Below are positions 10,821-34,536 of a stretch of 64,000 nucleotides of DNA, piece by piece. Below the pieces are notes generated by a model that did not search any database, was not told the origin of the DNA, and was given only the letters and a program-made list of their open reading frames with translations. The DNA is taken from positions 7,634 through 71,633 of the forward strand of contig CANKMT010000008.1 in assembly GCA_947482825.1 (NCBI GenBank). Direction: 5' to 3'. The position numbers and the translations under genes are program-made. The stretch comes from Betaproteobacteria bacterium. GTDB taxonomy: Bacteria > Pseudomonadota > Gammaproteobacteria > Burkholderiales > SG8-39. Each line of letters opens with the position of its first letter. The stretch's first letter is position 1.

Positions 10821-10879
10821 CCTTGCCTCCTCAGTCAAACGAAAAAACCCGCACGCCTCCAAGCGGCGGGATCCGAAAC

Positions 10880-12349: not shown

Positions 12350-12357
12350 GATGGCCT

Positions 12358-14438: not shown

Positions 14439-14459
14439 CGCGCGCGCCGGCCCGCGAAC

Positions 14460-15605: not shown

Positions 15606-16027
15606 TTCGCGCTCCCCGCCGGCCGAAACATTGGAATCGCGAGGTTTTCGCCTGCCGCTTCGAACACGACCTCGACCCGCATTCCGATTTTCACCGAGTC
15701 GACCGGACAGTCCACGACGTTGGTCATCATCCGCGGCCCTTCGTCGAGCTCAACCATCGCCACCGCATAGGGAACCCGGGTCTTGAAAAAAGGATCTCCC
15801 GACTGCCTGACCACCGTGAAGGTATGCACCGTACCGCCGCCCGAACCCTTGATCCAGTCGACCCGATTCGAGCCGCAATGCGGGCAACGCGGGCGCGGAT
15901 GCCAGAAAGTGCGTGCGCAGGCCGTGCATTTGGGGACCAGCAAGCTACCTTCGGCGGCGGCCTTCCAGAACTTTTCCCCCGCATTCCTGGTTTCGGGAAG
16001 CGGGCGCGACGGAGTTTTCTCAGACAT
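15602..16027 (-). CDS. DUF35 Zn-ribbon/OB-fold protein
   Basis: 141 aa with CTAC...CPHC rubredoxin-like knuckles followed by an OB-fold. This is the classic partner of SCP-x-type thiolase-like proteins. Confidence 0.85.
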   Translation of the reverse strand: MSEKTPSRPLPETRNAGEKFWKAAAEGSLLVPKCTACARTFWHPRPRCPHCGSNRVDWIKGSGGGTVHTFTVVRQSGDPFFKTRVPYAVAMVELDEGPRMMTNVVDCPVDSVKIGMRVEVVFEAAGENLAIPMFRPAGSAK

Positions 16028-16104
16028 CGAACGACCTTTGGCGGTGCGGTGGACGCGTGCCGTCAGGCTGCATCCGTGTCGCGTTCGGGGATTGGATCAT
16101 TTGC

Positions 16105-17553
16105 TTATCGGCCGACCATGAGTTCGGTCCCCGCAAACCGCAGCTTCATGCGGCCCAGGCCGGTCTGACTGCCCAGGTAATGGACCAACTCGTTCAGCGG
16201 GGTCGTCCGATGCGCGTGGGGCTTTTCCGCGCGCACGCGAAGCGGCGCAAGCAGCCCCTTTTCGTAGAAAGCCGCCAGCAGGATGTCTTCGTCATCCGCC
16301 CCGGCGCCCAACTCTTTGCGCAAACGAGGGATCCACGGCTCGACGTGGGCGCCCGCTCGCCCGTGCGCCAAAGCACCCGGCTCGACTTGCGCGCGCTCCA
16401 GAAACTCCTTGCACGGCGTCGCGGCCAGGCGGCCGTAGTAGCCCATCGCGTACTTGCGAACTTCGTCGGGGATGGTTTTGTAGCGCTCGCCGGAAACGAC
16501 GTTAATCACCGCCTGGGTGACGACGTACTGCGCAAACGGGCTCACCAGGATCGGGTAACCGAGATCCTCACGCACCCGCCCCACCTCTTCGAGGATCTCG
16601 GGCAGGCGATGTCCCATGCTCATGGTCTCGAGTTGGGATTTCAGATTCGAGATCATGCCGCCCGGAACTTGATGGGAATACAGCGCCGGGTCGTAGGCCA
16701 CCGCCTTGCCGCGGGGCTTGTCTTCCCGCACGCACAGCCAGTTGAAGTAACCGCTGATTTCCGCGATCGCCTCCATGTTCAGGCCGGTTTCCACGCCAAG
16801 TTCGGCCGCGCGCCGGGCGATGTCTTCCACCGCCGGCAAGGACGCTCCGTTGGCCAGCGGCATGACCGCCGTATGCACGTAATGAAATCCCGCCTTGATC
16901 GCCTCGCTATAGACTTCCGGCGCGAGCGTGGACTGACAGTGCGAATGCAATTCGACGTGCTTGCCGCCCGCGGCCTGCATCACCACGGGAAAGAGCGTCT
17001 TCGCACGCTCCGGGGTCAACAAGCCCGTCGGATCCTTTACGCCGACGCGGTCCGCGCCCAGCGCGACCAACTCCCGAATGCGCTCGGCATAGTAGGCGTC
17101 CGTGTGCACCGGGCTGACCGTGTACACGGTGACCGCGGTTACGTTCATGCCGACGGCTTTGGCCGATGAAATCGGCACCTCGACGTTGCGGTTGTCGTTG
17201 ATCGCGTCGTAGACGGTGACGCTTTTCATCCCGTTGCGGGCGAGGACCTTGGAATTGAGCTCGACGATGTCGTCCGGAAAGAGCTCGAACGTATAGAGAC
17301 TCTGCCCTCTCAGAAACGTATCGGCGGGTGTGCGCAGATTCGCGCAGAGAGCTTCCACGCGACGCCAGGGGTTTTCATGCAAAAATCGCACGCAGACGTC
17401 GAATACCGCTCCACCCAGGACATTCACATAGTCATAGCCGGCCCGGTCGATGGCCGGCAGGATCGGCGCCATCATCGCCGAGGTCATCCGCGTCGCCCAC
17501 AGGCACTGATGGCCGTCCCGGAGCGTCACGTCGATGAAGCCCAGCCGCGGCAC
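16105..17553 (-). CDS. 5S-type carboxyltransferase subunit, paralogue 2
   Basis: IDVTLRDGHQCLWATRM, VKDPTGLL, LHSHCQS. 482 aa with no BCCP domain. Starts 3 nt after the BCCP stop. Confidence 0.87.
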   Translation of the reverse strand: MPRLGFIDVTLRDGHQCLWATRMTSAMMAPILPAIDRAGYDYVNVLGGAVFDVCVRFLHENPWRRVEALCANLRTPADTFLRGQSLYTFELFPDDIVELNSKVLARNGMKSVTVYDAINDNRNVEVPISSAKAVGMNVTAVTVYTVSPVHTDAYYAERIRELVALGADRVGVKDPTGLLTPERAKTLFPVVMQAAGGKHVELHSHCQSTLAPEVYSEAIKAGFHYVHTAVMPLANGASLPAVEDIARRAAELGVETGLNMEAIAEISGYFNWLCVREDKPRGKAVAYDPALYSHQVPGGMISNLKSQLETMSMGHRLPEILEEVGRVREDLGYPILVSPFAQYVVTQAVINVVSGERYKTIPDEVRKYAMGYYGRLAATPCKEFLERAQVEPGALAHGRAGAHVEPWIPRLRKELGAGADDEDILLAAFYEKGLLAPLRVRAEKPHAHRTTPLNELVHYLGSQTGLGRMKLRFAGTELMVGR

Positions 17554-17556
17554 GAA

Positions 17557-18078
17557 TCATCCCTTCGGGTCGATGACGATCAAGGCCTGTCCCACGTCGA
17601 CCGGCTCTGCGTCGCCGACCAGAATATGGGTCACCCGGCCGGCGCAGCCGGCGGGCATCGAGTTCATCAGTTTCATGACCTCGATAATGCAAACGATCGC
17701 ATCGGCCTCGACTTTCTGCCCAACCTCGACGAACGGCTTGGCGCCCGGTTCCGGCGAACGATAAAACGTGCCCACCATGGGCGATCTGACTACCGTCGAG
17801 CCGGCCGGGAAATCGATTGCTGCGGCGCGGGGCGCGCCTTTCGGCGTTGCAGGCACCGAGGCCGCAGTTGCGGGTGCGAGTGCGGGTGTGGTTGAGGGTG
17901 CGATCGTAGCCATCGGCGGCGCAACCGGCACCGTCGCGGCATTCGCCCCGGCCCCGGACTTGCGCAAATCGAGTTCGATCTCACCGACTTTCAGGTGGAA
18001 TTCGGAAAACGACTCCGCGGATTTGATCAGTTCGACGATCTGCAACAGGTCGTCGTAGCTCAGGATTTCCTTTCCCAC
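17557..18078 (-). CDS. accB: biotin carboxyl carrier protein (AccB architecture)
   Basis: 173 aa: N-terminal domain, Ala/Pro-rich linker and a biotinyl domain with the CIIEVMKLMN (E-x-MK-x-M) biotinylation motif. Confidence 0.9.
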   Translation of the reverse strand: MGKEILSYDDLLQIVELIKSAESFSEFHLKVGEIELDLRKSGAGANAATVPVAPPMATIAPSTTPALAPATAASVPATPKGAPRAAAIDFPAGSTVVRSPMVGTFYRSPEPGAKPFVEVGQKVEADAIVCIIEVMKLMNSMPAGCAGRVTHILVGDAEPVDVGQALIVIDPKG

Positions 18079-18329
18079 CGGACGGTCTCCCTGGTTTTAT
18101 GGTCGTTACACCGTGCGCGCCGGCTTTGACGCCGCACGCGAATGCAGGCTCGCTCTCTATTGTGCGAGCGATGCATTCTAAGCATAAACCGCCCGCGTGC
18201 CCCGGCCCGTGAAACCGGTCCGGTTCCGGCAATCACCGGCCGATAGAGTAAACACGCAATCTACAATAAGCTTGTACTGTTTCGCATTCGTCCTTCTCCC
18301 GTGCGGCGGCCCATGGAAGGCACATAAAC

Positions 18330-19775
18330 ATGAACAGTCAAAGCGCCGGCAGCGACTTCGGACTGATCGACGTCACGCTGCGCGACGCCCATCAATGCCT
18401 CTGGTCGACGCGGATGACCACGGCGATGATGACGCCCATCCTCGCCGCGCTCGACAAAGTCGGCTACGCGTACCTCAACATCATGGGCGGCGCGGTGTTC
18501 GACGTGTCCGTGAGGTTTCTACACGAGGATCCGTACGAGCGCGTGCGGCTTTTGTGCAGCCGTCTGGCCACGCCGTGCGATGCGCTCACTCGCGGCCAGA
18601 GTCTGTACACGTTCGAACTGTTTCCGGACGACATCGTCGCGCTGAACTCCGAGGTGCTGGGCAGGCTCGGCGTGAAGGTGCTGACGGTCTACGACGCGCT
18701 CAACGACAACCGGAACATCGAGTCCTCCCTGCGCTCGGGTCATGCCGCCGGCATGAAGGTCAACGCCATGATGACCTACACCTTGAGCCCGGTGCATACC
18801 GACGCCTACTACGTGGAGCGCACGATCGAATTGCGCACGATGGGCAGCGATTTCATTTCGATCAAAGATCCCACCGGACTGCTGACTCCCGAGCGCGCGC
18901 GCACGCTTTTCCCGGCAGTCGTCCAGGCCGCGGGCGCAATTCCGGTGAAGCTGCATTCTCATTGCCAGTCGGGCCTGGCGCCGCAGGTCTATCAGATCGC
19001 CATCGAGTCGGGGTTTCGTTACGCCTACACCGCGTCGGAGCCCCTCGCCAATGGCGCTTCGCTCCCCGCCAGCGAGGACATCGATACGCGCGCCACCCGC
19101 ATCGACCGCGGCCGCCTGGCGGAAGTCTCCGGGTACTTCGCCTGGCTGGCCGAGCGCGAAGGCAAGCCGCTCGGACGCGTCGCCAAATTCGACCCGGCGC
19201 TCTACGAGCACCAGGTGCCGGGCGGGATGATCTCCAATTTGCGCTCGCAACTTCAGGTCATGGGCATCGAGCATCGCCTTCCGGAAATTCTCGAGGAAGC
19301 GGCTCAGGTCCGCCGAGACCTGGGATACCCGATCCTCGTGAGCCCCTTCGCGCAGTACATCATCACCCAGGCCGTGCTCAATGTCGTGCAGGGCGAGCGT
19401 TACAAGACAATTCCGGACGAGGTCCGCAAGTACGCAATGGGCTATTACGGCCGTCTGGCCGCGCAGCCTGCGGCCACGTTTCTCGAGCGGGCCAATTTCC
19501 GGCCCGACGAGTTCGTGACGGAGCGGTCCGCGGAGCATCTCGCGCCCTGGCTGCCTCGGCCGCGCGCCGAGTTGGGCTCCAGTGCGCGGGACGAGGACCT
19601 TTTGCTTGCCGCGTTTTACGACAAGGCACTGCTCGCGCCGCTGAAAAAACCCGCCCCCGCATACCAGTTCCGAACCTGGCCTCTGTATGAACTGATCCGC
19701 TATGTGGGAACCCGTTCCGACATCGACCGGGCGACCCTGCGTTTCGCGGGAACAGAGATGACGTTTACCGCGTGA
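18330..19775 (+). CDS. 5S-type carboxyltransferase subunit, paralogue 3 (divergently transcribed)
   Basis: IDVTLRDAHQCLWSTRM, IKDPTGLL, LHSHCQS. Closest to paralogue 2 by eye. Confidence 0.87.
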   Translation: MNSQSAGSDFGLIDVTLRDAHQCLWSTRMTTAMMTPILAALDKVGYAYLNIMGGAVFDVSVRFLHEDPYERVRLLCSRLATPCDALTRGQSLYTFELFPDDIVALNSEVLGRLGVKVLTVYDALNDNRNIESSLRSGHAAGMKVNAMMTYTLSPVHTDAYYVERTIELRTMGSDFISIKDPTGLLTPERARTLFPAVVQAAGAIPVKLHSHCQSGLAPQVYQIAIESGFRYAYTASEPLANGASLPASEDIDTRATRIDRGRLAEVSGYFAWLAEREGKPLGRVAKFDPALYEHQVPGGMISNLRSQLQVMGIEHRLPEILEEAAQVRRDLGYPILVSPFAQYIITQAVLNVVQGERYKTIPDEVRKYAMGYYGRLAAQPAATFLERANFRPDEFVTERSAEHLAPWLPRPRAELGSSARDEDLLLAAFYDKALLAPLKKPAPAYQFRTWPLYELIRYVGTRSDIDRATLRFAGTEMTFTA

Positions 19776-19817: not shown

Positions 19818-20552
19818 GTGGACGATTCGCTGATTTCCGCCCGGTTTTGGATTGCCGTGGCGATCGCGGGCGCGGCCGGCGTCATACGCGGCATCACCGG
19901 CTTTGGCGGCGCGTTGGTCATGACACCGCCGCTCGCTCTCCTGTACGGGCCGCAGATGGCCGTACCGGTGGTGCTTTTGCTCGAAGCCTTCGCCGCGACG
20001 CCGATGATGCGGGACATCGCGCGCGCCGTGCAGTGGCGCACGATCATGCCGATTTCCCTTGCGGCCTGTTGCATGGTTCCGTTCGGCGGCTATCTGCTCG
20101 TCACCGCCGACCCGCAAGATCTGCGCCGTGCTATGGCGGCGATCGTGATCATTTTTTCGCTGCTCCTTCTTGCTGGCTGGCGTTACTCTGGAGCGCGCGG
20201 CCTGCCTGCAAGGCTGGGCCTGGGCATGATCGGCGGCGGAATGCTCGGCGCCACGGGCATGGGCGGGCCGCCCGTGATCCTGTACCTGATGTCGGGCCCC
20301 GATCCGGTCAGCACAACCCGCGCCAACATGAACGTGCACGTGGTCGTGACTTCGCTTGGCGCGCTCGCGATGCTGGGCTGGCGCGGGATCCTGGATGAGA
20401 AATGCGCGCTGACCGCGCTGCTGCTTGCGCCGGTTTTCTACGTCGGGGCGATTGTCGGCACTCGACTATTTTCTCGTTTCAGCGAACGGGGCTTCAGGCA
20501 ATTCGCCCTGATCCTGATGCTCGCCGTGTCCACCGGAATACTCCTAGCCTGA
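19818..20552 (+). CDS. TauE/SafE (TSUP) family membrane transporter
   Basis: 244 aa, about 7-8 TM segments, with duplicated G-x-G-G motifs (ITGFGGALV / GATGMGGPPV). Confidence 0.8.
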   Translation: MDDSLISARFWIAVAIAGAAGVIRGITGFGGALVMTPPLALLYGPQMAVPVVLLLEAFAATPMMRDIARAVQWRTIMPISLAACCMVPFGGYLLVTADPQDLRRAMAAIVIIFSLLLLAGWRYSGARGLPARLGLGMIGGGMLGATGMGGPPVILYLMSGPDPVSTTRANMNVHVVVTSLGALAMLGWRGILDEKCALTALLLAPVFYVGAIVGTRLFSRFSERGFRQFALILMLAVSTGILLA

Positions 20553-21421: not shown

Positions 21422-21682
21422 CTATTGCACGGTGATGTTCGCGTCGCTCACGATCTTGCGGAATTTGGCGATTTCCGCGCGCAGGTAGGCGCCGAATTGC
21501 GCCGGCGCCAGGCCCGAGGTTTCCGCCCCCAGCTTCGCCATGTTGGCGCGGATATCGGGCATGCGAATGACCTCGGCCACGTCCGCATGGATCTTCGCCA
21601 CGATGTCCGGCGAGGTGACCGGTCGAACCTGAATGGACAGCGCAGTCACGGTTGCGGTCATCGATCTCCTCCTGGAATTCAA
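21422..21682 (-). pseudogene. C-terminal fragment (~65 aa) of a TTT/Bug-family solute receptor
   Basis: SPDIVAKIHADVAEVIRMPDIRANMAKLGAETSGLAPAQFGAYLRAEIAKFRKIV matches only the last ~20% of the five full-length Bug receptors in this window. There is no signal peptide and no N-domain. Confidence 0.6.
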
Positions 21683-22118: not shown

Positions 22119-23849
22119 TCAGGCCGCATCCTTCAACAGCGTCTGCCCCGGCTTCACGCGCGTGAACGCCACCGGTTTCATCGCAATCCCGAGCTTGCCG
22201 CCCTCCGCCATCGTCACGCTGGTATAGGCCGAAGTCTCCAGCGGACCTGCGGCCGGGAAGTCCGCGCGGAAATGCGCGCCGCGCGAATCCTCGCGCGCGA
22301 TCGCCGCCTCGGTGATGACCTTGCTCACCTGCACCAGGCTCTTCAGGTTCATCCAGTCGTGCCACGAGAGGTTGAAGCCGCGCTGGTGGTCGACCAGCGT
22401 GTGCGCATCCAGTTCATCGTCGATCCCCTTCAGCGCAGCAACCGCTTCGGCCAGCGGGGCGGCATCGCGGATGATGCCGACCTTGTCCCACATGAGGTCG
22501 AACAAGCCTTCGCGCAGCGGCTCGATGCTTCCGTGCGAAGCGCCTTTCGAGCGCAGCGGACGCTCGCACTGACCAACGGCTGCATCGATCGCCGCGCGGT
22601 CCGGGTCGCGGTGTCCGCCTTCGGTCTTGAGCCACGCGGCCATCGCCTCGCCGGCCACCCCGCCGAACACGGTCGAGTTCGCGACGCCGTTGCCGCCGAG
22701 GCGGTTGGCGCCATGCACGCCGCCCGAGTCCTCGCCCGCCGTGAACAAGCCCGGCAGCGCCGTAGTGCAATCGAGATTGAATTCCACGCCGCCCATCATG
22801 TAGTGAGCGGTCGGCACGACTTCCACGAGCCCACCAGCAAGATCAAAGCCCGAATCCGCACAACGTTCGACCATGCCCTTGAACATCTTCGTCACATTGG
22901 CCGGCCCGAGGTGCGCCATCGAGATATAGAGCCCGCCGTGCGGGCTGGTGCGTCCTGCGCGCATCTCGCTGTACATCGAACGCGACACGATGTCGCGCGT
23001 GGCGCGCTCGAGCTTGGCGTCGTACTTGTGCATGAAGCGCTCGCGATTGCCGTCGAGCAGGTAACCGCCGGAACCGCGGAGCCCTTCCTCGATCACGGTG
23101 CCCGTCATGCGCGTGTGGGTGCCGGCGAGCAATCCCGTCGGATGGAACTGCACCATCTCCATGTCGCGCACAGCGAGCCCCGCGCGCAGTGCCATCGCAA
23201 GGCCGTCGCAACTCTTGTCGCCCGAGGGCGTGTGGTACTTGTACATCGTCGGCCCGCCGCCGGTGGCGAGCAGCACGGCGCGCGCCCTGACGAACACATA
23301 CTCGCCGGTGCGCATGTCGATCATGAGCACGCCGGCCAGCGCATCGCCCGATGCGGTCTTCACAAGCTCGACGGCGCGGTGCTCTTCCAGCCGGCCGATG
23401 TCGCGCGCCCACACCTGTTCGGCCAGTCGGTTGATGATCTCGATGCCGGTGAGGTCGCCTTTATGCACCGTGCGATCGAACGTCTGGCCCGCAAAGGCTT
23501 TCTGGTGGACGGTGCCGTCGGGATTGCGGTCGAAGAAGCAGCCCAGTTCGTTTTCCAGCTCGTGGATGCGCTCTACCGCCAGCACGACGAGCTTCCACGC
23601 TAGGTCCTGGTCGGGTAGCCATTTGCCGCCCTCGATCGTGTCCATGAAGTGCCGCTCGATCGAATCGCCGGCGGCAAGCGCTACGTTGTAGCCGCCCTGG
23701 ACCATTCGCGTGCAGCCGCACTTGCCGAGGAGTCCTTTGACCGCCACGGTGATTTTGAGGTCGGGCGAGGCCTGGTGCGCATGCAGTGCGGCAAACAGGC
23801 CCGCGCCGCCGGAGCCCAGGATCAGGATGTCGGTATTCAATTCGCGCAT
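22119..23849 (-). CDS. FAD flavoprotein of the succinate dehydrogenase/fumarate reductase/L-aspartate oxidase family (stand-alone)
   Basis: GSGGAGL dinucleotide fold, FHPTG, LRGSGGYLL, HYMMGG, HGANRLGGN. The covalent-FAD His position reads GCTRMVQGG (no His). Starts 1 nt after the glmE-like stop. No Fe-S or membrane-anchor subunit genes are nearby. Confidence 0.88.
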   Translation of the reverse strand: MRELNTDILILGSGGAGLFAALHAHQASPDLKITVAVKGLLGKCGCTRMVQGGYNVALAAGDSIERHFMDTIEGGKWLPDQDLAWKLVVLAVERIHELENELGCFFDRNPDGTVHQKAFAGQTFDRTVHKGDLTGIEIINRLAEQVWARDIGRLEEHRAVELVKTASGDALAGVLMIDMRTGEYVFVRARAVLLATGGGPTMYKYHTPSGDKSCDGLAMALRAGLAVRDMEMVQFHPTGLLAGTHTRMTGTVIEEGLRGSGGYLLDGNRERFMHKYDAKLERATRDIVSRSMYSEMRAGRTSPHGGLYISMAHLGPANVTKMFKGMVERCADSGFDLAGGLVEVVPTAHYMMGGVEFNLDCTTALPGLFTAGEDSGGVHGANRLGGNGVANSTVFGGVAGEAMAAWLKTEGGHRDPDRAAIDAAVGQCERPLRSKGASHGSIEPLREGLFDLMWDKVGIIRDAAPLAEAVAALKGIDDELDAHTLVDHQRGFNLSWHDWMNLKSLVQVSKVITEAAIAREDSRGAHFRADFPAAGPLETSAYTSVTMAEGGKLGIAMKPVAFTRVKPGQTLLKDAA

Positions 23850-23850
23850 T

Positions 23851-25344
23851 TCAGGCAGCCCTCTTGTCCGACATCAGTTTTGCAATCGGTTCCGATATTT
23901 CGTAGACGCTCTGCACCGCGAGGTCGACGCCGAAAGGCACGTTCTCCCGCGTCGCGCGGCGGCGCAGCTTCTCTTCGTGGATTTCCATCACGTCCTTCGG
24001 GAAAGGCATCAGGCCCGGGTCGAAAATCCGCAGGCACCCGTCGGCATCACGCGCCGGCATCACGCGGCTCTTGACCCAGCGGTTCGGCGACCAGGGGATG
24101 TCGAGAACGCCGGCTTCGCATGCGCGCACCGTGCCGACGGCCGCGTCGCCGTCGCCCATCTCGAGCACTTTGTCCACCACCGGACGTACTTCGCGCTTGA
24201 TCAGGTCGACCTCGTCCTTGAATTCCTGCATCGAATCGAGCCGGATATGGCGCGCAAGGTAAACCGCGGTGCGCGTGATGCGCAGGCCTTCTGCGTTCGC
24301 CTTGGGCGTCGGGATGCCGAAGGCCTCATGGGTGCTCTTGGTCGTCACCGAATCGGCACCGGCGATCGCCGCGAGCGTGCCGCCATACGAAACCAGCGCC
24401 GCGCACTGCGCCTCGTCCTGAGGCCAGGCACCCATCCAGTGCAACAGCGTGATGGGGGTGTACACGTCCTTGTAGCCCTTGCGCGCGAGATACTCCTGGC
24501 AAAGTTCACGACAGGCTTTGACCGCAGCGGCATCCTGCACGAGGTGCAAGGTCTCGCCCATTTCGAGCCCGTAGTTGCGCACGCCTTGCGCCGCCGCGAG
24601 CAGCATGTCCAGGATCGCAACGATGATCGCCACCGAGGGCGGGATGTTCGTTCCCGTGAGGAATCCCGGCTGCCGGCGATGCAACTCGATGCCACGGTCC
24701 TGGTAGAGCGCCGTCAGCCGGTCGAGGTACTGGTAGTTGCGGATCCCGTCCTCAATCGAAAGCTCCTTGGTGTAGGAGGACGTATACGCGATGCCCGAGC
24801 CGAGATACCCGGTATAGCCGCCGGCAAAAGAGATCTCGCCGGTCAGCTTTGGCATCGCGGTGCCGGTCAGCATGATGGCCGGCTTGTCGATCGCGTCGAT
24901 CAGCTCGGCGGCCTTGGCCACGCCGTAGTTCACCATCGGATACCCGTTAAGGAGAGAGCGCCCCAGCCGCTCGGACTCTTCGACGCCTTTTTGCGCGAGG
25001 TGGAACTGCTCGTTGCGCGTATAGCTGTCGGTCGTGGTCGGCACCACGTCGGCCAGGCCTTCGCGGTCGAGCACCTGCATGAGTTCCTTCTGCAATTCGA
25101 ACGTGCCGAACCCGCCGCGCGGCTGGGTCAGGCAACGGCCCTCGGCGGACGCGGCGCGCATGACGGCGCTCAGCCGCTTGTGCGCGGGCAGGCGCTCATG
25201 GCGTTCGATCGCTTCGTCGAGGTTCACCCCGGCCCCGGTGGGCCAGCGCGCAAGGTTGCGCACGCGCATGCGCCCGAAGAGGTCTTCGTCGATGCGCGCC
25301 TCGGACAGCGCGGCCGCGAAATCGGGATCAGAGGGAGCGTTCAA
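23851..25344 (-). CDS. glmE: methylaspartate (glutamate) mutase E-subunit homologue
   Basis: WPTG..., TQPRGGFGT, TTDSYTRNEQ and RSLLNGYPMVNYGV match GlmE/MutE. The track start (25386) overlaps glmL by 59 nt. A TTG at 25344 preceded by GAGGAG (7-nt spacer) is the more likely start. See the findings for the atypical active-site positions. Confidence 0.85.
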   Translation of the reverse strand: MNAPSDPDFAAALSEARIDEDLFGRMRVRNLARWPTGAGVNLDEAIERHERLPAHKRLSAVMRAASAEGRCLTQPRGGFGTFELQKELMQVLDREGLADVVPTTTDSYTRNEQFHLAQKGVEESERLGRSLLNGYPMVNYGVAKAAELIDAIDKPAIMLTGTAMPKLTGEISFAGGYTGYLGSGIAYTSSYTKELSIEDGIRNYQYLDRLTALYQDRGIELHRRQPGFLTGTNIPPSVAIIVAILDMLLAAAQGVRNYGLEMGETLHLVQDAAAVKACRELCQEYLARKGYKDVYTPITLLHWMGAWPQDEAQCAALVSYGGTLAAIAGADSVTTKSTHEAFGIPTPKANAEGLRITRTAVYLARHIRLDSMQEFKDEVDLIKREVRPVVDKVLEMGDGDAAVGTVRACEAGVLDIPWSPNRWVKSRVMPARDADGCLRIFDPGLMPFPKDVMEIHEEKLRRRATRENVPFGVDLAVQSVYEISEPIAKLMSDKRAA

Positions 25345-26740
25345 GGGAGGACTCCTCGCGTGGGCTGTGCAGGTGGCCGAGCGCAAGTTCGAGCGCCGCT
25401 TCGGGCTCGACCTGGCTCAGCAATCCGCAAGCGTAAAGGATATAGCTGCGATCGATGAGGATGCGCGGCGCCTTCGGGCGCAGCGACCCCGGTTCCGCCG
25501 GATCGAACAGCGCCACCGAAAGCAGGTCTTGCGGGTCTGCGTCGTGCGCGATGACGCCGCCGGTGCCGATGAGCGTGCCGGCTGCGGACAGGTCCTTGCC
25601 GTCCTGCGCAGCGACTGGCCCATTGGCCGTGTACACAGTCTGCACACGACCGCAATGGCGGCGCATCGCGATCCGCAACGCAGCCCTCGCCAGCGCCCGG
25701 TCGAGCCTCGTTTCCTCAGTGCCGTTTGGCAGGCTTTCCACGTTGCGGGAGAGTTCGCCGACCAGGGCTTGCAGGCGCGCTTCGCTCAAGTCCGCGTCGG
25801 CCGCGACGGATGTGGCGCCCGCCGCCTCGACGATCGCGGCCGCGTTGTGGCGCATGCCGAGGTCGCCTTCGACCGTGCGCTTCACGCGCGGCTCCGGCAG
25901 CCCGCGCTGGATCACGCCGGGCGTGGCCGGCGCGCCGCTGGCCACCGAATGCACGTCGGTCGTGGCGCCGCCGGGATCGATGACGACGAGGTCGCCCAGC
26001 CCCGCAAAGCCTTTGCAGCCATCCGCAATCAACCGCGCGCCTTCCATGACCGCGGCGGGCGTCGGCATCAGGACCGCGTCGAACTCGGCCGCCGCGCGGT
26101 CGATGCCCTTGGCGTGGACGATGCGCTCGATGAACACGCTGCGGATCGCCGCGCGCGCCGGCTCGATGTTGAGTTCACCCAATTCGGGCATCACGTTTTC
26201 GGTCACCTGCGCCTGCTTGCGCGCAAGCAGCGCGTGCGCTTCGTCCGCCACCACCCGGTTGCCGGCGTAGATCAACGGACACACCAGGGCGCTCTCGCCG
26301 AGCATCCCGGCGTTGTGGAGGATCACTTCGCTGTTGCCCCCGTCGGTCCCGCCGGCAAGCAGCACGATGTCGGGCTGGATTTCGACGATGCGCGCGAGAT
26401 CTTTCGCCGTCAGCCGGTTGGCGTACGTCCCGACCAGCCTTGCTCCCGCGCCGAGCGCCGCCCAACGCGCCGCCTCGAGCGTGAGCTCGCGCACCAGCCC
26501 GATGGCCACCATGCGCAGGCCGCCCGCGGCGCTGCTCGATGCGAGCCGATGCCGAAACACCGGCAACCCGCCGAGCCTGCGCCCAAGATCGGCCAGCGCG
26601 GCATTCATACCGAGCGTGATGTCGGTCGTCACGGTGGAGGGCCCCTGCCCCGACCCGAGGAGCTTGCGCCGGTCGAGGTCGACCGCCCGCAGCTTGGTGT
26701 AGGTGCTGCCGAAGTCGATCAGGAGCGCTGCGCGGCTCAT
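25328..26740 (-). CDS. glmL: glutamate mutase L component (MutL/GlmL, ASKHA-fold reactivase/chaperone)
   Basis: 470 aa with an N-terminal LLIDFGSTYTK (actin-like ATPase phosphate-1 motif). It sits between the S and E genes as in clostridial mut/glm operons. 4-nt overlap with glmS. Confidence 0.82.
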   Translation of the reverse strand: MSRAALLIDFGSTYTKLRAVDLDRRKLLGSGQGPSTVTTDITLGMNAALADLGRRLGGLPVFRHRLASSSAAGGLRMVAIGLVRELTLEAARWAALGAGARLVGTYANRLTAKDLARIVEIQPDIVLLAGGTDGGNSEVILHNAGMLGESALVCPLIYAGNRVVADEAHALLARKQAQVTENVMPELGELNIEPARAAIRSVFIERIVHAKGIDRAAAEFDAVLMPTPAAVMEGARLIADGCKGFAGLGDLVVIDPGGATTDVHSVASGAPATPGVIQRGLPEPRVKRTVEGDLGMRHNAAAIVEAAGATSVAADADLSEARLQALVGELSRNVESLPNGTEETRLDRALARAALRIAMRRHCGRVQTVYTANGPVAAQDGKDLSAAGTLIGTGGVIAHDADPQDLLSVALFDPAEPGSLRPKAPRILIDRSYILYACGLLSQVEPEAALELALGHLHSPREESSLERSL

Positions 26741-27177
26741 GCGGGCTTGCCGATCCGCTCGCGCTCACCCAGGTCCTGCGCCAGCCACTCGAGCACCGCC
26801 TCGACGCGTGTGCCGGGCGCGGCCGCGCGATCGAATCCCATGTCGAGGAAAATCTTCTCGACCTGCTCCCAAGGGTGCTTGCCGACGACGAGGTTGCCGC
26901 CGACATACAGAAGCATGTTTTCGAGTCCGGCCTCCACGCACAGGTCGCGAAACCCCCGGCAGTCGAGCTCACCCTGCCCATAGAGCGAAGATACGAGAAT
27001 CGCGTCGGCATTCGTCTCGATGGCCGCGCGGATGAAGTCAGCGGCCGGCGTCAGCGCGCCAAGCGAGACCAGCTTGTAGCCAGCCTTTTCCAAAGCCATC
27101 GAGAGGATACGGTTGCCAACGATATGCGTGTCGGAGCCGATCACGCCCGTGACTATGGTTTTCTGGGTCATGGCCAA
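26737..27177 (-). CDS. glmS: methylaspartate mutase S subunit (cobalamin-binding)
   Basis: 146 aa. TIVTGVIGSDTHIVGNRIL carries the DxHxxG base-off/His-on motif. SSLYGQGELDC and LYVGGNLVVGK are nearly identical to clostridial GlmS/MutS as I remember it. Confidence 0.92.
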   Translation of the reverse strand: MAMTQKTIVTGVIGSDTHIVGNRILSMALEKAGYKLVSLGALTPAADFIRAAIETNADAILVSSLYGQGELDCRGFRDLCVEAGLENMLLYVGGNLVVGKHPWEQVEKIFLDMGFDRAAAPGTRVEAVLEWLAQDLGERERIGKPA

Positions 27178-29293: not shown

Positions 29294-31330
29294 TCAAGGT
29301 GCGTGCGCCGGACCTCTTCGTCGTAGCACCTGCAGCACCAACGCGAGCACTACGCCCCCGAATCCGATGAAGTCGGCGATCGCCGACGGATAGACGAGCG
29401 CGAACCCGGCGATGATGAACAGGGCCCGCTCAATGACATTGGTCTTGATCAGCGCCCAGCCCTGGAACCCGGCCGCAAGCGCGGCGATGCCCACTGCGGC
29501 GGTCAGCGTGACCTCGGCAATCATCCACCAGTTGGCAGCCGCAAGCGCCTTGGTCGAGCCCATGAGCAGGAGGCCAAGCCCGCTTGGGTCGAGCACGAAC
29601 ATGAACGGCACGAGAAATGCGGGCGTGGTGTACTTCCAGCACTGCAGCGTGGTCTTGTAAGGGTCCCCGCCGGTGATCGCCGCCGCGGCGAAGGGCGACA
29701 GCGCGGTCGGCGGCGAGACTTCCGAGAGCACCGCGTAATAGAAGATGAACATGTGCGCCGCGTACTCGGGCACCTTGAGCGCGATCAGGGCCGGCGCCGC
29801 GATCACGGCGCAGATGATGTAGGAGGCCGTCACCGGCACCGCCAACCCGACGATCCAGACAATGAGCGCGGTGTAAATCGCGGTCAACAGAAGCGAGTTG
29901 CCGGCGTAGGCGAGCACGATGGAGCTGAACTTGAGCCCGAGGCCCGTCAGCGTCACGACGCCGACGATGAGCCCCGCGCCTGCGCAGGTCGCCGCCACGT
30001 TGAGCACGGCGCGCGAGCCGCCGTCGAGCGCCTTGACCAGCCCCGACTCGGCGATGCCCCGCCACGGCGAGATCTTTCCCTGGAAGATGTCGTAGGAGAG
30101 CAGCGTCGTGTCGCGCCGCAGGAAGCTGGTGGCCAGCGCCACAATCGTCGCCCAGAACACCGACAGCTCGGGCGAGAAGCCCATCATCATGAAAGCGACG
30201 ATCGAGACCAGCGAAAGGAAATGGAACCAGTACTTCTTCGCCAGGCTCCAGGCCGACTCGACCTGCTCGAACACCACGTCTTTCATGCCGAACTTGCGCA
30301 CGTCGATCTCGACCATGATGAACAGCGCCATGTAGTACAGGCAGGTGGGAATCACCGCCATCAGGATCACGTCGAGGTACGAAATCTTGAGGAACTCGGC
30401 GATCAGGAAGGCCGCCGCGCCGAGCACCGGCGGCGAGATGATCGCGCCCAGGCCGCCGGCGGCGAGCAGGCCGCCGGCTTCCTCCTTGTTGTAGCCGACC
30501 TTGGCGAGCATCGGCGCGGCCACCGCGCCCAGCGTCACGGTGGTCGCCACCCCGGACCCGGAAGGGCCGCCGAGCAGGAAGGAGGCGAGCGTCACCGTGC
30601 GCCCGGCGCTGGAGGGCTTGCCGCCCATCGCCGAGAAGGAGAAATCGATGAAGAACTTGCCCGCGCCCGAGAACTGCAGGAACGCCCCGTAGAGGGTGAA
30701 CAGGATGATCAGCGTCGAGGACACGTTGATCGCGGTGCCGAAAATGCCTTCGAGGGTCATGTACATGTGGCCGATCAGGCGCGGCACCTCGTAACCCTTG
30801 TGGGTCCAGGGCGCGGGCAGGTACGCCCCGAAGAACGCATACGCGAGAAAGCAGCCGGTGATGAACGGCAGGATCCAGCCCGTGGTGCGCCGCATCGCCT
30901 CGAGCACCAGCAGCACCAGCAGCACGCCGAAGGCGATGTCCCAGTCGTTCGGCACGATCGAGCGGTCGAAGAACTCGTCGCCCCCGGCGATCAGGTAGGC
31001 CGCGGTCGCGATGCCCGCCAGCGCAAGCAGCCAATCCCACCACATGACGCGGTGGCGAAAGCGCCGCGCGACCGGAAAGATCAGGAACGACAGGAACAGC
31101 ACGAAGGCGACGTGGATCGCGCGCAGGTGCTCGGGGCGCACGATGGCGTAGGCGGTGTAGAGGTGGAACAGCGACATCGCCACCGCCACCGTCGTCACGA
31201 AGGCGGCGAGCCAGCCGACAAGCTTGTTCTGGACGCCCTCCTCGCGCTCGATCATTTCCTCGGCGCGCGCGAGCGCGGCCTCGCTGACCTCCTTGGAGGG
31301 CTGGTGCAGCCTCGTGATCTCTTCGCTCAT
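29294..31330 (-). CDS. TAXI-type TRAP transporter fused (4TM/12TM) permease
   Basis: About 678 aa from ATG 31330 (MSEEITRLHQ...), highly polytopic. It lies downstream of a TAXI receptor. The track N-terminal extension is R/P-rich. Confidence 0.88.
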   Translation of the reverse strand: MSEEITRLHQPSKEVSEAALARAEEMIEREEGVQNKLVGWLAAFVTTVAVAMSLFHLYTAYAIVRPEHLRAIHVAFVLFLSFLIFPVARRFRHRVMWWDWLLALAGIATAAYLIAGGDEFFDRSIVPNDWDIAFGVLLVLLVLEAMRRTTGWILPFITGCFLAYAFFGAYLPAPWTHKGYEVPRLIGHMYMTLEGIFGTAINVSSTLIILFTLYGAFLQFSGAGKFFIDFSFSAMGGKPSSAGRTVTLASFLLGGPSGSGVATTVTLGAVAAPMLAKVGYNKEEAGGLLAAGGLGAIISPPVLGAAAFLIAEFLKISYLDVILMAVIPTCLYYMALFIMVEIDVRKFGMKDVVFEQVESAWSLAKKYWFHFLSLVSIVAFMMMGFSPELSVFWATIVALATSFLRRDTTLLSYDIFQGKISPWRGIAESGLVKALDGGSRAVLNVAATCAGAGLIVGVVTLTGLGLKFSSIVLAYAGNSLLLTAIYTALIVWIVGLAVPVTASYIICAVIAAPALIALKVPEYAAHMFIFYYAVLSEVSPPTALSPFAAAAITGGDPYKTTLQCWKYTTPAFLVPFMFVLDPSGLGLLLMGSTKALAAANWWMIAEVTLTAAVGIAALAAGFQGWALIKTNVIERALFIIAGFALVYPSAIADFIGFGGVVLALVLQVLRRRGPAHAP

Positions 31331-31403
31331 CTCTCTGTCCCCAGAATGAAAAGCCCCGCCAGAAGCCTGGACGGGGTCCGGGGTCCCGGGTCCGCGCGTC
31401 CGG

Positions 31404-32426
31404 CTACTTCTTCGCGGCCTTGTCCACCTTCTTGGCGCCCGTGTCAGTAACCTTCGCGGCGGCGGCACCCGCGCCCATCACGTTGATGCCCTGCTCGGCG
31501 AAATACTTGAGCGCCGCCGGATGCCAGGGGATCGACGAATTCGCGGCGCGCTGGTTCTCGGGCTTGATGTTCACCGCCTCGGCGTGTACGCGCACCAGGT
31601 CGACGCGATGCTCCCAGAGGGTCTTGATGATCGTGTACGCGGTCTTGTCGTCCATGCTCGCGTGCACGGCGAGCAGGTTGGTCACCGTTGCGGCCTGATT
31701 GTCGGCGGTCATGCCGTTATACATCCGCTGCGGGATCACGTCCTTCACGTAGATGTTGCCGTACTTCTTCTCCATCTCCGGCACCAGGTGGGCGATGTCG
31801 ATCATCCTGATCTTCACCCCGGGCGAGTTGGCGAGATCCGTCACCGCCGCCGTCGGCAGGCCGCCGACCCAGAAGAACGCGTCGATCTTGCGGTCCTTGA
31901 GCGCGTTGACGGATTCGGCGACGCCGAGTCTTTCCCTGCGCATGTCCTTGTCCTTATCAAGGCCGGCCGCCTCGATGACACGGAATCCAAACACCTCGGT
32001 CGCACTGCCGCCCGAGCCGGTGGACACGCGCTTGCCCTTCAGGTCCGTAATCTTCGTGACGCCGGTGCCCTCGATCGACACCACGTGCATGCGGTTCGGA
32101 TAAAGCACCGCGATAGTGCGCACGGGAATCGGCTTGCCCGCGAATTTGTCCTCGCCCTTGAGCGCATCGATCGCCGCGTCGGCCTGCGTGAACGCGATGT
32201 AGGGCTTGCCGGTGCCGATGAGCTGCATGTTCGCAACCGAGCCGCCGGTGACTTCGGCGGTGGCCTGCATGCCAGGCACTTTGGACAGCACTGCGGCCAC
32301 GCCGCCGCCGAGCGGGTAATACACCCCGCCGGTGCCACCGGTGGCGATGGAGATGTTCTGCGCTCCGGCAAGTGCCGAAAACGCGACGCCCACTGCAAGG
32401 GCTATGAGGCCGCTGAGTTTTTTCAT
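31404..32426 (-). CDS. TAXI-family TRAP transporter solute receptor
   Basis: ATG 32426 (MKKLSGLIALAVGVAFSALAGAQ) preceded by AAGGAGA. ATGGTGGVYYPLGGG is the TAXI (TIGR02122-type) hallmark. Confidence 0.9.
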   Translation of the reverse strand: MKKLSGLIALAVGVAFSALAGAQNISIATGGTGGVYYPLGGGVAAVLSKVPGMQATAEVTGGSVANMQLIGTGKPYIAFTQADAAIDALKGEDKFAGKPIPVRTIAVLYPNRMHVVSIEGTGVTKITDLKGKRVSTGSGGSATEVFGFRVIEAAGLDKDKDMRRERLGVAESVNALKDRKIDAFFWVGGLPTAAVTDLANSPGVKIRMIDIAHLVPEMEKKYGNIYVKDVIPQRMYNGMTADNQAATVTNLLAVHASMDDKTAYTIIKTLWEHRVDLVRVHAEAVNIKPENQRAANSSIPWHPAALKYFAEQGINVMGAGAAAAKVTDTGAKKVDKAAKK

Positions 32427-32548: not shown

Positions 32549-33556
32549 CTATTTTTCCTTCAGCTGGGCGGCGTTTACCACACGTTGGTTGGCGGCAAGC
32601 TCTTCCCGAATGAAGCCGTCGAACTCTTCAGGCTTCATCGCCGAGGCCCGAGCGCCGAGCGTTTCGAACCTCGCCTTGACGTCGGCGGACTCGAGGACCT
32701 TGGCCACCTCCGCGTTCAGTCTTTCGACGATCGCGCGCGGCGTCTTGCTCGGAGCGAGCAACCCCACCCAGAACACGTAATCCGCAACCCCCGCCTCGGC
32801 CGTCGTCGGCACGATTGGCCATTGCGGCAGTCGGGTCGGGGAACCGACCGCTAGCGCCTTGAGCTTGCCGCTTTGGATGAACGGCATGGTCGCCGCGAGC
32901 GGCGCGAACATGTAATCGACGCGTCCGCCGACGATTTCCGCCATGCCGTCGGAAGTGCCCTTAAAAGGAATATGCACCGCCTCGAATGCGGCCTGCACCC
33001 TGAACTTCTCCGCGTTCAGGTGCGTGGAACTCCCATTGCCCGCCGATGCATAGTTGAGCTTGCCTGGATTCGATCGACCGAAGGCGATCAGTTCACCGAC
33101 TGAGCCGAAACGAGCCTGCGCCGAGGCCACGAGGACCACGGGCATCACGACAAGCATGGTGACTCCTGAAAAATCCCGCAGCGTGTCGAACGGGAGATTC
33201 GACATCATCGCCGGACTGATCGTGTGGTTGGAGGATGAAACGAGCAGAGTGTGGCCGTCCGGACTTGCGCTTGCGACAAGCCCGGCGCCAAGCGTCCCAC
33301 CCGCACCAGCTCGATTCTCGACGAGGACGGGCTGGCCGAGAGCGGCGCTGAGCTTGTCCGAAATCGAACGCGCGACGATATCGTTGGTGCTGCCTGCGGA
33401 AAACGAAACGATCAGCCTGATCGGCTTCGACGGGAAAGGCTGCGCGAAGACGGCGGCTGCGCTCGACCCCAAGACGAGCGCGGTGACCAGACCCGCGGCG
33501 CCCCTTAGTAGCCGCTCCCGGGCAAGCACTCCGATGTGACAATGGATATGGTTCAT
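32549..33556 (-). CDS. TTT substrate-binding protein, Bug/TctC family
   Basis: QPFPSKPIRLIVSFSAGS start of the mature protein. ATGA overlap with the upstream LLM gene. Confidence 0.9.
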   Translation of the reverse strand: MNHIHCHIGVLARERLLRGAAGLVTALVLGSSAAAVFAQPFPSKPIRLIVSFSAGSTNDIVARSISDKLSAALGQPVLVENRAGAGGTLGAGLVASASPDGHTLLVSSSNHTISPAMMSNLPFDTLRDFSGVTMLVVMPVVLVASAQARFGSVGELIAFGRSNPGKLNYASAGNGSSTHLNAEKFRVQAAFEAVHIPFKGTSDGMAEIVGGRVDYMFAPLAATMPFIQSGKLKALAVGSPTRLPQWPIVPTTAEAGVADYVFWVGLLAPSKTPRAIVERLNAEVAKVLESADVKARFETLGARASAMKPEEFDGFIREELAANQRVVNAAQLKEK

Positions 33557-34536
33557 GACTTCCTCACCTTGGGCAGAACGTCGCGCGCGATCATTTCCAG
33601 CTGGTCCAACTGCCAGTTGACCGGATTCAGGATGATATGTTCAACCGACTCCCCAAGAGCGTGCACCTTCTTGCTTATCTGCTCTGCGACTTCCTCGGCC
33701 TCTCCCACAAGGTAATACGTGCGCCAGAAATCCAGATCGAGTCCCGATATCGTGGAGAAGTGGGGGATCGCGGCCTCGGGCTTTTCACCTTTCTTCAAGA
33801 CGTAGACAAAGTTCGAATAGGCCTTTGTGAGCTCGCTGGGACGACGCCCTTCTTTCACCATGAGTCCTTGAATGCGCTCCCAATCCTGCGCAACCATTTC
33901 AGGGGTGGAAGCCGAGTGAGGAACCCATGTCTGCGCATACTTCGCTATGCGGCGCAAAACCGGAGTCATGTCGGGCATGGCCTGCGCGTAAACCTTTTCG
34001 AACGGCTGAGTTCCTCCGCCGATCCAGATTTCCGGCAGTTTCAGCGGCTTCGGCTCGATCGTAACGTCCTCGAAGCGGTAGTGCCTGCCTTGAAAGCTGA
34101 CCCGATCACCCGTCCAGAGGCCGATCAGGATTTCCAGCATCTCGTCCATGCGACGCCCGCGCTCGTTTCGCGGGATATTCATCGCGGCGAATTCCTGCTC
34201 GTGCCAGCCCACTCCCACCCCGAAGATCGACCTGCCTCCGGCGAGAACGTCGAATGTTCCCCACTCCTTGGCCATCAGCACGGGGTTCCGAAGCGGGAGG
34301 GCGATTACCATCGGGCCGAGCTTGATCGTGCGGGTGACGCCTGCCAGTGCGGAAAGCAGAACCATCGGCTCGAGCCACGTTCGAACTGTCGTCGGCGGCA
34401 CCACGAGCAGGTGATCGATGCAAACGGCGCTCTCGAAACCGAGATCCTCGGCATGACGCAGGTACGCGCCCATCTCCGCCAAGGTGGCGGTCTTCGGCCC
34501 AAGGGCGAAACTGGGCAGTCGTAGTCCGAATTTCAT
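33553..34536 (-). CDS. LLM-class (luciferase-like) flavin/F420-dependent oxidoreductase
   Basis: MKFGLRLPSF... N-terminus, 327 aa, TIM-barrel LLM pattern. Confidence 0.82.
   Translation of the reverse strand: MKFGLRLPSFALGPKTATLAEMGAYLRHAEDLGFESAVCIDHLLVVPPTTVRTWLEPMVLLSALAGVTRTIKLGPMVIALPLRNPVLMAKEWGTFDVLAGGRSIFGVGVGWHEQEFAAMNIPRNERGRRMDEMLEILIGLWTGDRVSFQGRHYRFEDVTIEPKPLKLPEIWIGGGTQPFEKVYAQAMPDMTPVLRRIAKYAQTWVPHSASTPEMVAQDWERIQGLMVKEGRRPSELTKAYSNFVYVLKKGEKPEAAIPHFSTISGLDLDFWRTYYLVGEAEEVAEQISKKVHALGESVEHIILNPVNWQLDQLEMIARDVLPKVRKS

Follow-up and report, generated by a model that had tools for sequence, protein, structure and literature searches.

To our knowledge, only a handful of B12-dependent carbon-skeleton mutases have been described, namely the glutamate, 2-methyleneglutarate, methylmalonyl-CoA, isobutyryl-CoA, ethylmalonyl-CoA, 2-hydroxyisobutyryl-CoA, and pivalyl-CoA mutases, and each of them opened a new pathway. 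Here, we describe a homologue of the catalytic subunit of glutamate mutase (GlmE) encoded in a 64,000-nucleotide stretch of DNA, referred to here as the window, from a Betaproteobacteria bacterium of the order Burkholderiales (assembly GCA_947482825.1, contig CANKMT010000008.1, positions 7,634 to 71,633). All coordinates below are window positions. Its residues and its neighbours suggest that the protein is very probably not a glutamate mutase and, with the same high confidence, that it would be a working carbon-skeleton mutase of new specificity.

The closest described system is glutamate mutase (GlmES/MutES, EC 5.4.99.1), as found in Clostridium cochlearium (1CCW/1I9C) and in E. coli O157 (ECs_0762-0764). 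The glycyl half of glutamate is held by Arg66, Arg149, and Glu171, of which Glu171 contacts the amine, and the acrylate half is held by Arg100 and Tyr177 (PMC10947579). The window protein belongs to the same family and aligns without gaps at approximately 38-41% identity. Both systems have a separate S subunit with a DxHxxG motif, a GlmL partner, the gene order S-L-E, and the residues Arg66, Arg100, Tyr177, Tyr181, Lys326, and Glu330. In contrast to glutamate mutase, the clade of the window protein carries R149L, H150T, E171L, G173S, and E214R, has no linked methylaspartate ammonia-lyase (methylaspartase), has other neighbours, and is hosted by aerobic or freshwater Proteobacteria rather than by glutamate fermenters or haloarchaea. 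A second relevant enzyme is the 2-methyleneglutarate mutase of Eubacterium barkeri (EC 5.4.99.4), also a B12 carbon-skeleton mutase, whose acid is shaped like glutamate and lacks the amine; a substrate logic of G-CH2-CH2-COO- (G being the migrating group) would be common to both. That enzyme is a single polypeptide with a fused C-terminal B12 domain, it belongs to an anaerobic nicotinate fermenter, and its product passes on to an isomerase and a hydratase, whereas the S subunit of the window is encoded by a separate gene and no nicotinate-pathway context was seen around the clade.

Substrate-site residues of the GlmE homologue

The gene for the GlmE-like catalytic subunit lies at 23851..25344 on the minus strand and encodes 497 amino acids, an assignment based on PF06368, TIGR01503, and PDB chain 1CCW_B. 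The full open reading frame (ORF) spans 23851..25386 (-) and contains two in-frame TTG starts, of which the TTG at 25386 would give 511 amino acids. The TTG at 25344 is the likelier start since it has a GAGGAG ribosome-binding site upstream, since it overlaps the end of glmL by 17 nucleotides, and since public gene calls use the same 497-amino-acid start for a protein (P0001) that is 100% identical to the window GlmE. On the opposite strand, an antisense ORF of 582 amino acids (23710-25458, +) exceeds the real gene in length; it arises as an artefact of G+C-rich sequence (65%) and does not represent a gene.

We found that the window GlmE matches PF06368 at 457 bits in a Pfam profile search and TIGR01503 at 442 bits against an NCBIfam equivalog cutoff of 390, with the full-length homology that defines glutamate mutase E. 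Since it lies above the equivalog cutoff, the NCBI annotation pipeline names the protein methylaspartate mutase, and its relatives are labelled "methylaspartate mutase" in NCBI and JGI records wherever the source gives a name. For the window protein and its relatives, the label methylaspartate mutase subunit E is probably a systematic misannotation. A phmmer search against all PDB chains returned only glutamate mutase epsilon subunits (1CCW, 1CB7, and 1I9C as well as 6H9E/6H9F), and the alignment to 1CCW/1CB7/1I9C_B is a single ungapped block of 464 residues (query 34-497, chain 10-473, E = 2e-111).

Residue equivalences were taken from the phmmer alignment to the PDB chains of C. cochlearium GlmE, with window residues numbered in the 497-amino-acid form. 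A sequence-only reading of this DNA had placed the protein at a constant offset of +10 in a gap-free region and had claimed leucines at the positions of Arg149 and Glu171; both claims hold, the offset in the ungapped alignment numbered from the TTG at 25344, and the leucines also in a MAFFT alignment with 118 family representatives and in an alignment with E. coli O157 GlmE, which gave the same residue placement throughout. The stricter alignment thus does not restore Arg or Glu at either position. Arg66 corresponds to Arg76 (TQPRGG), Arg100 to Arg110 (DSYTRN), Tyr177 to Tyr187, and Tyr181 to Tyr191, all of which are kept, as are the adenosyl-site residues Lys326 and Glu330. At the arginine-claw position, Arg149 is replaced by Leu159 (AIMLTGT; codon 24868..24870 (-), Leu173 in 511-amino-acid numbering), and the amine contact Glu171 is replaced by Leu181 (GYLGSGIAY; codon 24802..24804 (-), Leu195 in 511-amino-acid numbering). 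The claw is thus incomplete, with Arg66 and Arg100 there and leucine at the third position, while the acrylate-half and adenosyl-site set (Tyr177, Tyr181, Lys326, and Glu330) is complete in the window GlmE and invariant in the clade. Three further clade-fixed changes go beyond the two leucines of the earlier reading: His150 is Thr160, Gly173 is Ser, and Glu214 is Arg224 (codon 24673..24675 (-), Arg238 in 511-amino-acid numbering). The substrate roles given to Arg66, Arg100, Arg149, and Glu171 in the earlier reading agree with the published account (PMC10947579).

We also built an AlphaFold2 model of the window GlmE from a shallow alignment; its predicted local distance difference test (pLDDT) score of 71 is moderate, and it was used for strand-end positions only. 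In this model, R76, L159, L181, R224, and K336 each lie at the C-terminal end of a barrel strand on the catalytic face, and strand 222-224 stops at Arg224, beside the strand bearing Leu181. Arg224 may partly substitute for Arg149 or may create a new anion site. If Arg224 stands in for Arg149, the amine contact may be the only clear loss, which is a caveat on the earlier reading. Overall, the aligned residues show that the radical machinery and the acrylate-half site (Arg100, Tyr177, Tyr181, Lys326, Glu330, and Arg66) are intact, and that the glycyl-half pocket is rebuilt across the clade by R149L, H150T, E171L, G173S, and E214R.

A clade with a fixed pocket and no methylaspartase homologue nearby

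We found that the altered pocket is a property of a whole clade. In an alignment of 197 clade sequences (MAFFT, fast settings), Leu at 149, Leu at 171, Ser at 173, and Arg at 214 are invariant, as are the canonical residues Arg66, Arg100, Tyr177, Tyr181, Lys326, and Glu330. Since both leucines are invariant in 197 sequences, they are a fixed trait and the product of neither chance nor decay. A comparison of 33 canonical representatives with 41 clade members identified 48 positions that are conserved and identical in both groups and 16 that are conserved within each group yet different between them; the latter include R149L, H150T, E171L, G173S, P180S, E214R, F216P, and L223N. Whether the Leu/Leu variant forms a separate clade had been put forward as a check on the sequence-only reading, and indeed it is monophyletic in a neighbour-joining tree of 129 family members.

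A word-indexed protein search identified more than 120 relatives at 75-100% identity to the window GlmE, nearly all from metagenome-assembled Burkholderiales and other Betaproteobacteria (e.g., Casimicrobiaceae and Polynucleobacter). In an exhaustive search of representatives clustered at 50% identity, one full-length protein was 64% identical (phmmer; 62% in MAFFT), fragments were 59-80% identical, and all others were at most 41% identical, a sharp break; clade members are at least about 62% identical to one another and reach at most about 40% identity with any PF06368 member outside the clade. A scan of one genome per species found a relative encoded in 195 genomes, mostly from Betaproteobacteria with some from Gamma- and Alphaproteobacteria, and the clade also occurs in many more metagenome contigs. 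The closest genome match (L005, 96% identity) is a freshwater metagenome-assembled genome labelled "Bordetella parapertussis", probably a taxonomic mislabel, and several other clade genomes are labelled "uncultured Enterobacteriaceae".

The canonical pair Arg149/Glu171 is present in only 38 of approximately 118 full-length PF06368 representatives (50% identity). Dozens of other residue combinations exist among the representatives, and Arg100, Lys326, and Glu330 are nearly universal. The family also contains forms of approximately 640 amino acids with a B12-binding domain fused ahead of the E domain, most of which are canonical, and E-domain-first forms, which are not. Non-canonical sites are common (about two thirds of PF06368 representatives at 50% identity), and the window protein is one case among many uncharacterised specificities.

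In the canonical reference cluster, E. coli O157 glmS-glmL-glmE-mal, the methylaspartase gene mal adjoins glmE; the two genes are also linked in Clostridia and haloarchaea, and no such linkage was seen in the clade. With tblastn at E <= 1e-3, the E. coli O157 methylaspartase (METHYLASPARTASE) matched neither the 64-kb window nor any of 85 related loci; in control searches, E. coli GlmE, GlmL, and GlmS found counterparts in 86, 82, and 70 sequences. The absence of methylaspartase claimed in the sequence-only reading therefore stands by homology, and it is qualified on the side of function since an adjacent gene of the enolase superfamily could encode a functional counterpart. Like methylaspartase, this neighbour belongs to the enolase superfamily and could take the product of the mutase through a comparable abstraction of the alpha-proton and beta-elimination. 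Unlike methylaspartase, it is an MR_MLE_C protein with no match to the methylaspartase Pfam families (MAAL_N/MAAL_C) and no tblastn similarity to the E. coli enzyme, and its two-lysine set is typical of racemases, epimerases, and cycloisomerases. In sum, the protein is a GlmE homologue that almost certainly resembles GlmE in its radical chemistry. Three features that define glutamate mutase are missing from it (Arg149, Glu171, and methylaspartase linkage), and filing it under EC 5.4.99.1 is unwarranted. The alignment, the separate clade, the missing methylaspartase homologue, and the clade's own conserved partners support the earlier suggestion that the substrate would not be L-glutamate.

Operon partners and sulfonate genes

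In the window, eight tightly packed minus-strand genes (gaps of -65 to +28 nucleotides) include the mutase genes. The first encodes a TAXI-type TRAP solute-binding protein (NMT1_3, PF16868; 31404..32465), followed by a fused TRAP transporter permease (TIGR02123, 554 bits; 29294..31468), an enolase-superfamily enzyme of the muconate-lactonising (MLE) subgroup (PF13378; 28192..29271), a TctC/Bug-type periplasmic solute-binding protein (PF03401; 27206..28171, starting MKNWKN with an AAGGAG site upstream), the GlmS-type B12-binding subunit (26737..27177), the GlmL/MutL-type accessory (i.e., reactivating) protein (25328..26740), GlmE, and a fumarate-reductase/L-aspartate-oxidase-like flavoprotein that binds flavin adenine dinucleotide (FAD) (PF00890, PF02910; 22119..23849) and begins 1 nucleotide past glmE. 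GlmS matches NF002612 (190 bits, cutoff 110) and carries the D-x-H-x-x-G motif as DTHIVG; GlmL matches PF13941 (533 bits) and NF040745 (573 bits, cutoff 475). The separate S subunit with a base-off/His-on DxHxxG motif and the GlmL partner, both hallmarks of glutamate mutase, are thus there, above NCBIfam equivalog cutoffs. With GlmS, GlmE, and GlmL, the window encodes every component of an adenosylcobalamin-dependent mutase of the glutamate-mutase type, which we infer to be functional.

The MLE-type enzyme could be aligned to the L-Ala-D/L-Glu epimerase (1JPM/1TKK) with the KxK motif, the Asp/Glu/Asp metal ligands, and the second lysine all there. Its segments FKVKVG, VDGNQG, ELLEQP, MLDES, and IKLKLMK align with K160/K162, D191, E219, D244, and K268 of 1JPM, and the enzyme falls below every family-specific NCBIfam cutoff. 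The flavoprotein, compared with E. coli SdhA, lacks the covalent-FAD histidine (Cys and Gly occur there), has Glu where SdhA has Thr254, and keeps H242, E255, R286, H354, and R399, the dicarboxylate-binding residues. In flavoproteins of the fumarate reductase, succinate dehydrogenase, and L-aspartate oxidase type, loss of this histidine with kept ligands indicates enoate reduction, and the residue combination points to a protein that would reduce a fumarate-like enoate rather than oxidise succinate. The window flavoprotein has no adjacent iron-sulfur (Fe-S) or membrane subunit; its relatives in L036, L040, and L049 have both. Between the flavoprotein gene and the short-chain dehydrogenase gene described below, an ORF of 86 amino acids (21422-21682, -) resembles the C-terminal end of TctC/Bug proteins without a Pfam match at 1e-5 and is probably a gene remnant.

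Neighbours in related loci were analysed by tblastn with reference proteins together with de novo gene calling and clustering. The codon-usage gene caller was noisy, fusing or splitting genes and dropping the TctC gene of the window; the de novo neighbour counts are lower bounds, with tblastn as a cross-check. An MLE-type gene stands beside the mutase genes in 53 of the 85 loci, many of which are incomplete, and L070 has mutase genes without any MLE-type neighbour. A Qor-like ene-reductase, whose best PDB match is 2-haloacrylate reductase 1WLY (E = 1e-70), occurs in 40 loci, and a flavoprotein resembling fumarate reductase (Frd-like) occurs in 10, the window included; the two are nearly mutually exclusive. 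The best matches of these ene-reductases, i.e., 2-haloacrylate reductase CAA43 (1WLY) and the soluble fumarate reductases, both reduce free enoic acids. In some Frd-type loci, the flavoprotein is joined by an SdhB-like Fe-S subunit, a small membrane anchor, and a hydratase resembling Fe-S class-I fumarase; Polynucleobacter loci have an AcnX-type hydratase in place of this fumarase-like one.

Sulfoacetate degradation has been described as the work of a Tct-type transporter (SauXYZ), a ligase (SauT or SauCD), SauS, and Xsc (PMC10413351). We found that genes for Xsc, SauS, a SucCD-like ligase (SauCD), or SuyAB-like proteins lie within 10 kb in at least 41 of 83 loci, and in at least 47 of the 83 when genes for TauE-like, SauT-like ligase, and sulfolactate-dehydrogenase-like proteins are also counted. 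With 937-945 bits for Xsc (cutoffs 676 and 620) and 764-793 bits for SauS (cutoff 600), both proteins of the related loci exceed their equivalog cutoffs. In L001, a run of genes on one strand with short gaps reads xsc, MLE-type, qor-like, glmS, glmL, glmE, tctC, tctB, tctA, sauS, and AMP-forming ligase, with a divergent gene for an IclR regulator ahead of it. The arrangement in L018, L020, and L021 is the same, with the mutase module between xsc and tctCBA-sauS-sauT on the same strand; among these four, the short intergenic gaps were measured in L001 only. In other lineages the gene order is altered and the AMP-forming ligase (SauT) is swapped for a two-subunit ADP-forming SucCD-like ligase. 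In the alpha- and gammaproteobacterial loci L057, L061, L064, L070, L072, L074, and L079, sauS is followed by a SucCD-like ligase that scores just under succinate-CoA ligase cutoffs. Since the association between the mutase and sulfonate genes survives rearrangement and non-orthologous replacement, it argues for a functional link rather than a chance neighbourhood.

Like the clusters of Cupriavidus necator (SauR/SauSTU and Xsc) and Bilophila wadsworthia (SauXYZ/SauCD/SauS), the relatives of the window locus thus have their mutase module among xsc, Tct, sauS, sauT or sauCD, and IclR genes. Unlike those clusters, whose pathway as described runs with neither a mutase nor an enolase-type enzyme nor an ene-reductase, the window is without xsc, sauS, and a sulfoacetate-CoA ligase. 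A putative sulfite exporter of the TauE/SafE family (PF01925, 102 bits; 19818..20552, +) is convergent with the operon. Furthermore, a gene of the TauD/TfdA dioxygenase family occurs in L006, L033, and L039, directly after glmE in L006 and L033, and would be a third kind of possible desulfonation enzyme beside the mutase module.

Candidate reactions and competing explanations

We propose that the clade would catalyse a 1,2-shift as in glutamate mutase, G-CH2-CH2-COO- <-> G-CH(CH3)-COO-, via hydrogen abstraction by the 5'-deoxyadenosyl radical and with the acrylate half bound as in glutamate mutase. The migrating group G would carry one anionic group and no alpha-ammonium, from which it would follow that the enzyme does not act on L-glutamate physiologically. 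Its enolase-type partner with two catalytic lysines could either racemise the alpha-carbon of the branched acid or eliminate a beta leaving group in the manner of methylaspartase, and the ene-reductase would act on a free alpha-substituted or fumarate-like enoate. Two routes can be drawn. In one, an alpha-substituted acrylate would be reduced to the branched acid, as suggested by the resemblance of the Qor-like partner to 2-haloacrylate reductase, its configuration would be adjusted by the enolase-type enzyme, and the mutase would then linearise it; linearising branched acids is the usual catabolic role of B12 mutases. In the other, the enolase-type enzyme would eliminate a leaving group that the rearrangement has placed beta to the carboxylate, and the reductase would remove the enoate.

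On balance, we lean slightly towards a pathway linked to organosulfonate catabolism. One anionic group of the substrate would then probably be a sulfonate, and a sulfocarboxylate is the leading candidate substrate because of the sulfonate gene context. The pathway might end in sulfoacetyl-CoA, sulfoacetaldehyde, and then acetyl phosphate and sulfite, or in direct elimination of sulfite, with sulfite exported through TauE. One candidate reaction, 2-methyl-3-sulfopropanoate <-> 4-sulfobutanoate, would feed beta-oxidation to sulfoacetyl-CoA followed by SauS and Xsc; this scheme is speculative and would accommodate every module. Other candidates are 2-sulfoglutarate <-> 3-methyl-2-sulfosuccinate and 3-sulfopropanoate <-> 2-sulfopropanoate. 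3-Sulfopropanoate is a natural product whose degradation route is unresolved (PMC12890257). It is conceivable, and we put this forward only tentatively, that the clade is the first adenosylcobalamin-dependent mutase of organosulfonate metabolism, shifting a sulfonate-bearing group or the sulfonate itself (i.e., as a sulfite radical). Such a shift would open an inert sulfocarboxylate to beta-elimination or to the sulfoacetyl-CoA/Xsc route.

Several points weigh against this proposal. No xsc, sauS, or sauT gene was found anywhere in the 64-kb window, where TauE is the sole sulfonate marker, and such markers are missing from 13 of the 34 long related loci. The proposed C4 and C5 sulfocarboxylates are not known as natural metabolites; a text search of the literature found none in microbial metabolism, "sulfobutanoate" appearing only as a linker in antibody-drug conjugates; in the full text of the literature we found no description of the clade or of a B12 mutase in sulfonate metabolism, only background papers. 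The pocket gained two leucines, although polar or cationic ligands would be expected around a sulfonate, and fragmentation to a radical that is not captodative (e.g., CH2SO3-) would be chemically more demanding than the formation of a glycyl radical. Plain dicarboxylates such as mesaconate would be equally compatible with the Frd-like flavoprotein and with the class-I fumarase-like genes of some loci. The proposal is drawn from sequence and neighbours, and the predicted structure (pLDDT 71) is of moderate confidence only.

Alternatively, the same type of mutase might act on an ordinary, non-sulfonated C5 dicarboxylate without an amine, for example in methylsuccinate <-> glutarate (with itaconate or mesaconate reduced to supply it), 2-methyleneglutarate <-> 3-methylitaconate, or 2-hydroxyglutarate <-> 3-methylmalate. 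In that case the neighbouring enolase-type protein would be a racemase, isomerase, or dehydratase, and the sulfonate genes would be mere neighbours in a shared acid-utilisation island. We consider this explanation rather unlikely, although several points favour it: Arg66 and Arg100 are kept, the Frd-like flavoprotein retains both carboxylate-binding His/Arg pairs, glutamate mutase turns over 2-hydroxyglutarate slowly, the 2-haloacrylate-reductase-like enzyme suits alpha-substituted acrylates such as itaconate, the 13 long loci without a sulfonate gene fit it, and FAD-type loci contain SdhB-like and Fe-S class-I fumarase-like genes (mesaconase-type, PMC4682846). However, it leaves unexplained why the module sits inside xsc-to-sauT operons and why three different desulfonation systems stand beside it in half of the loci; the loss of Arg149 would be unexpected if an alpha-carboxylate were retained, and simple, widespread pathways for such acids already exist.

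That the enzyme is still a glutamate mutase is improbable. Arg224 would have to replace Arg149 and another residue would have to meet the amine, with the enolase-superfamily neighbour as a non-orthologous methylaspartase that shares its superfamily with the classical one. The NCBIfam equivalog cutoff for methylaspartate mutase E is passed, canonical enzymes are among the closest relatives outside the clade, and a new arginine lies on the adjacent strand. However, Leu has replaced Glu171 without exception and none of the clade-specific changes supplies an acidic residue in its stead, no conserved ammonia-handling or glutamate-related genes lie nearby, the partners are an ene-reductase and sulfonate genes, and the MLE-subgroup neighbour lacks the methylaspartase families. 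Still less probable is an N-acylated glutamate or D-glutamate, with the amine masked or on the opposite face and the neighbour acting as an N-acyl-amino-acid racemase or dipeptide epimerase. The best characterised relatives of that neighbour are indeed L-Ala-D/L-Glu epimerases, N-succinylamino-acid racemases, and the N-acetyl-D-Glu racemase DgcA, and chemistry would favour a well-stabilised N-acyl-glycyl radical; the scores of the neighbour to those families, however, are far under the cutoffs, the conserved neighbourhood includes no gene for a deacylase, an acyltransferase, or amino-acid catabolism, and the ene-reductase and sulfonate context would go unexplained. Two canonical substrate ligands are gone, as a decayed or non-catalytic paralogue might show, but the replacements and the radical-machinery residues are invariant in 197 sequences from three proteobacterial classes, GlmS and GlmL are intact, and the operon is tight, which makes decay highly implausible. 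A B12-dependent sulfolactate or isethionate lyase is not favoured. We set aside a variant methylaspartate cycle that assimilates acetyl units from sulfoacetate, which conflicts with the loss of Glu171, and 4-sulfocatechol/sulfomuconate chemistry for the MLE-type enzyme, for which the known enzyme is of a different family.

For the preferred reading of a mutase with new specificity, a well-defined clade in at least 195 species-level genomes, with a rebuilt pocket, its own partners, and a strong sulfonate link, provides a concrete candidate for a new B12 reaction. The name "methylaspartate mutase subunit E" probably misleads metabolic reconstructions of freshwater and soil Betaproteobacteria, and the PF06368 "glutamate mutase" family is mostly of uncharacterised specificity, as about two thirds of its 50%-identity representatives lack the Arg149/Glu171 pair. 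A sulfonate substrate would make the reaction a new one. A sulfonate mutase would represent a new type of B12 reaction and would supply a missing step of the aerobic sulfur cycle in Burkholderiales that are abundant in freshwater and soil, Polynucleobacter among them.

Downstream of the operon, a short-chain dehydrogenase of uncertain role (PF13561; 20578..21384, -) has a counterpart of 96% identity in L005. Three paralogous carboxyltransferase genes (HMGL-like and PYC_OADA; 10880-12427, 16105-17553, and 18330-19775) are accompanied by genes for a biotin-carrier protein (17557-18078), thiolase-like and DUF35/ChsH2-type OB-fold proteins (14460-16027), an AMP-forming ligase (12855-14438), and a DctP binding protein (9771-10862). 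By these matches, the region 10880-19775 is an unusual gene cluster for a biotin-dependent carboxylase or decarboxylase. On the upstream side of the operon are genes for a luciferase-like monooxygenase (33553-34536, -), a second TctC (32549-33556, -), and a TetR regulator (34836-35660, +); some luciferase-like monooxygenases desulfonate alkanesulfonates.

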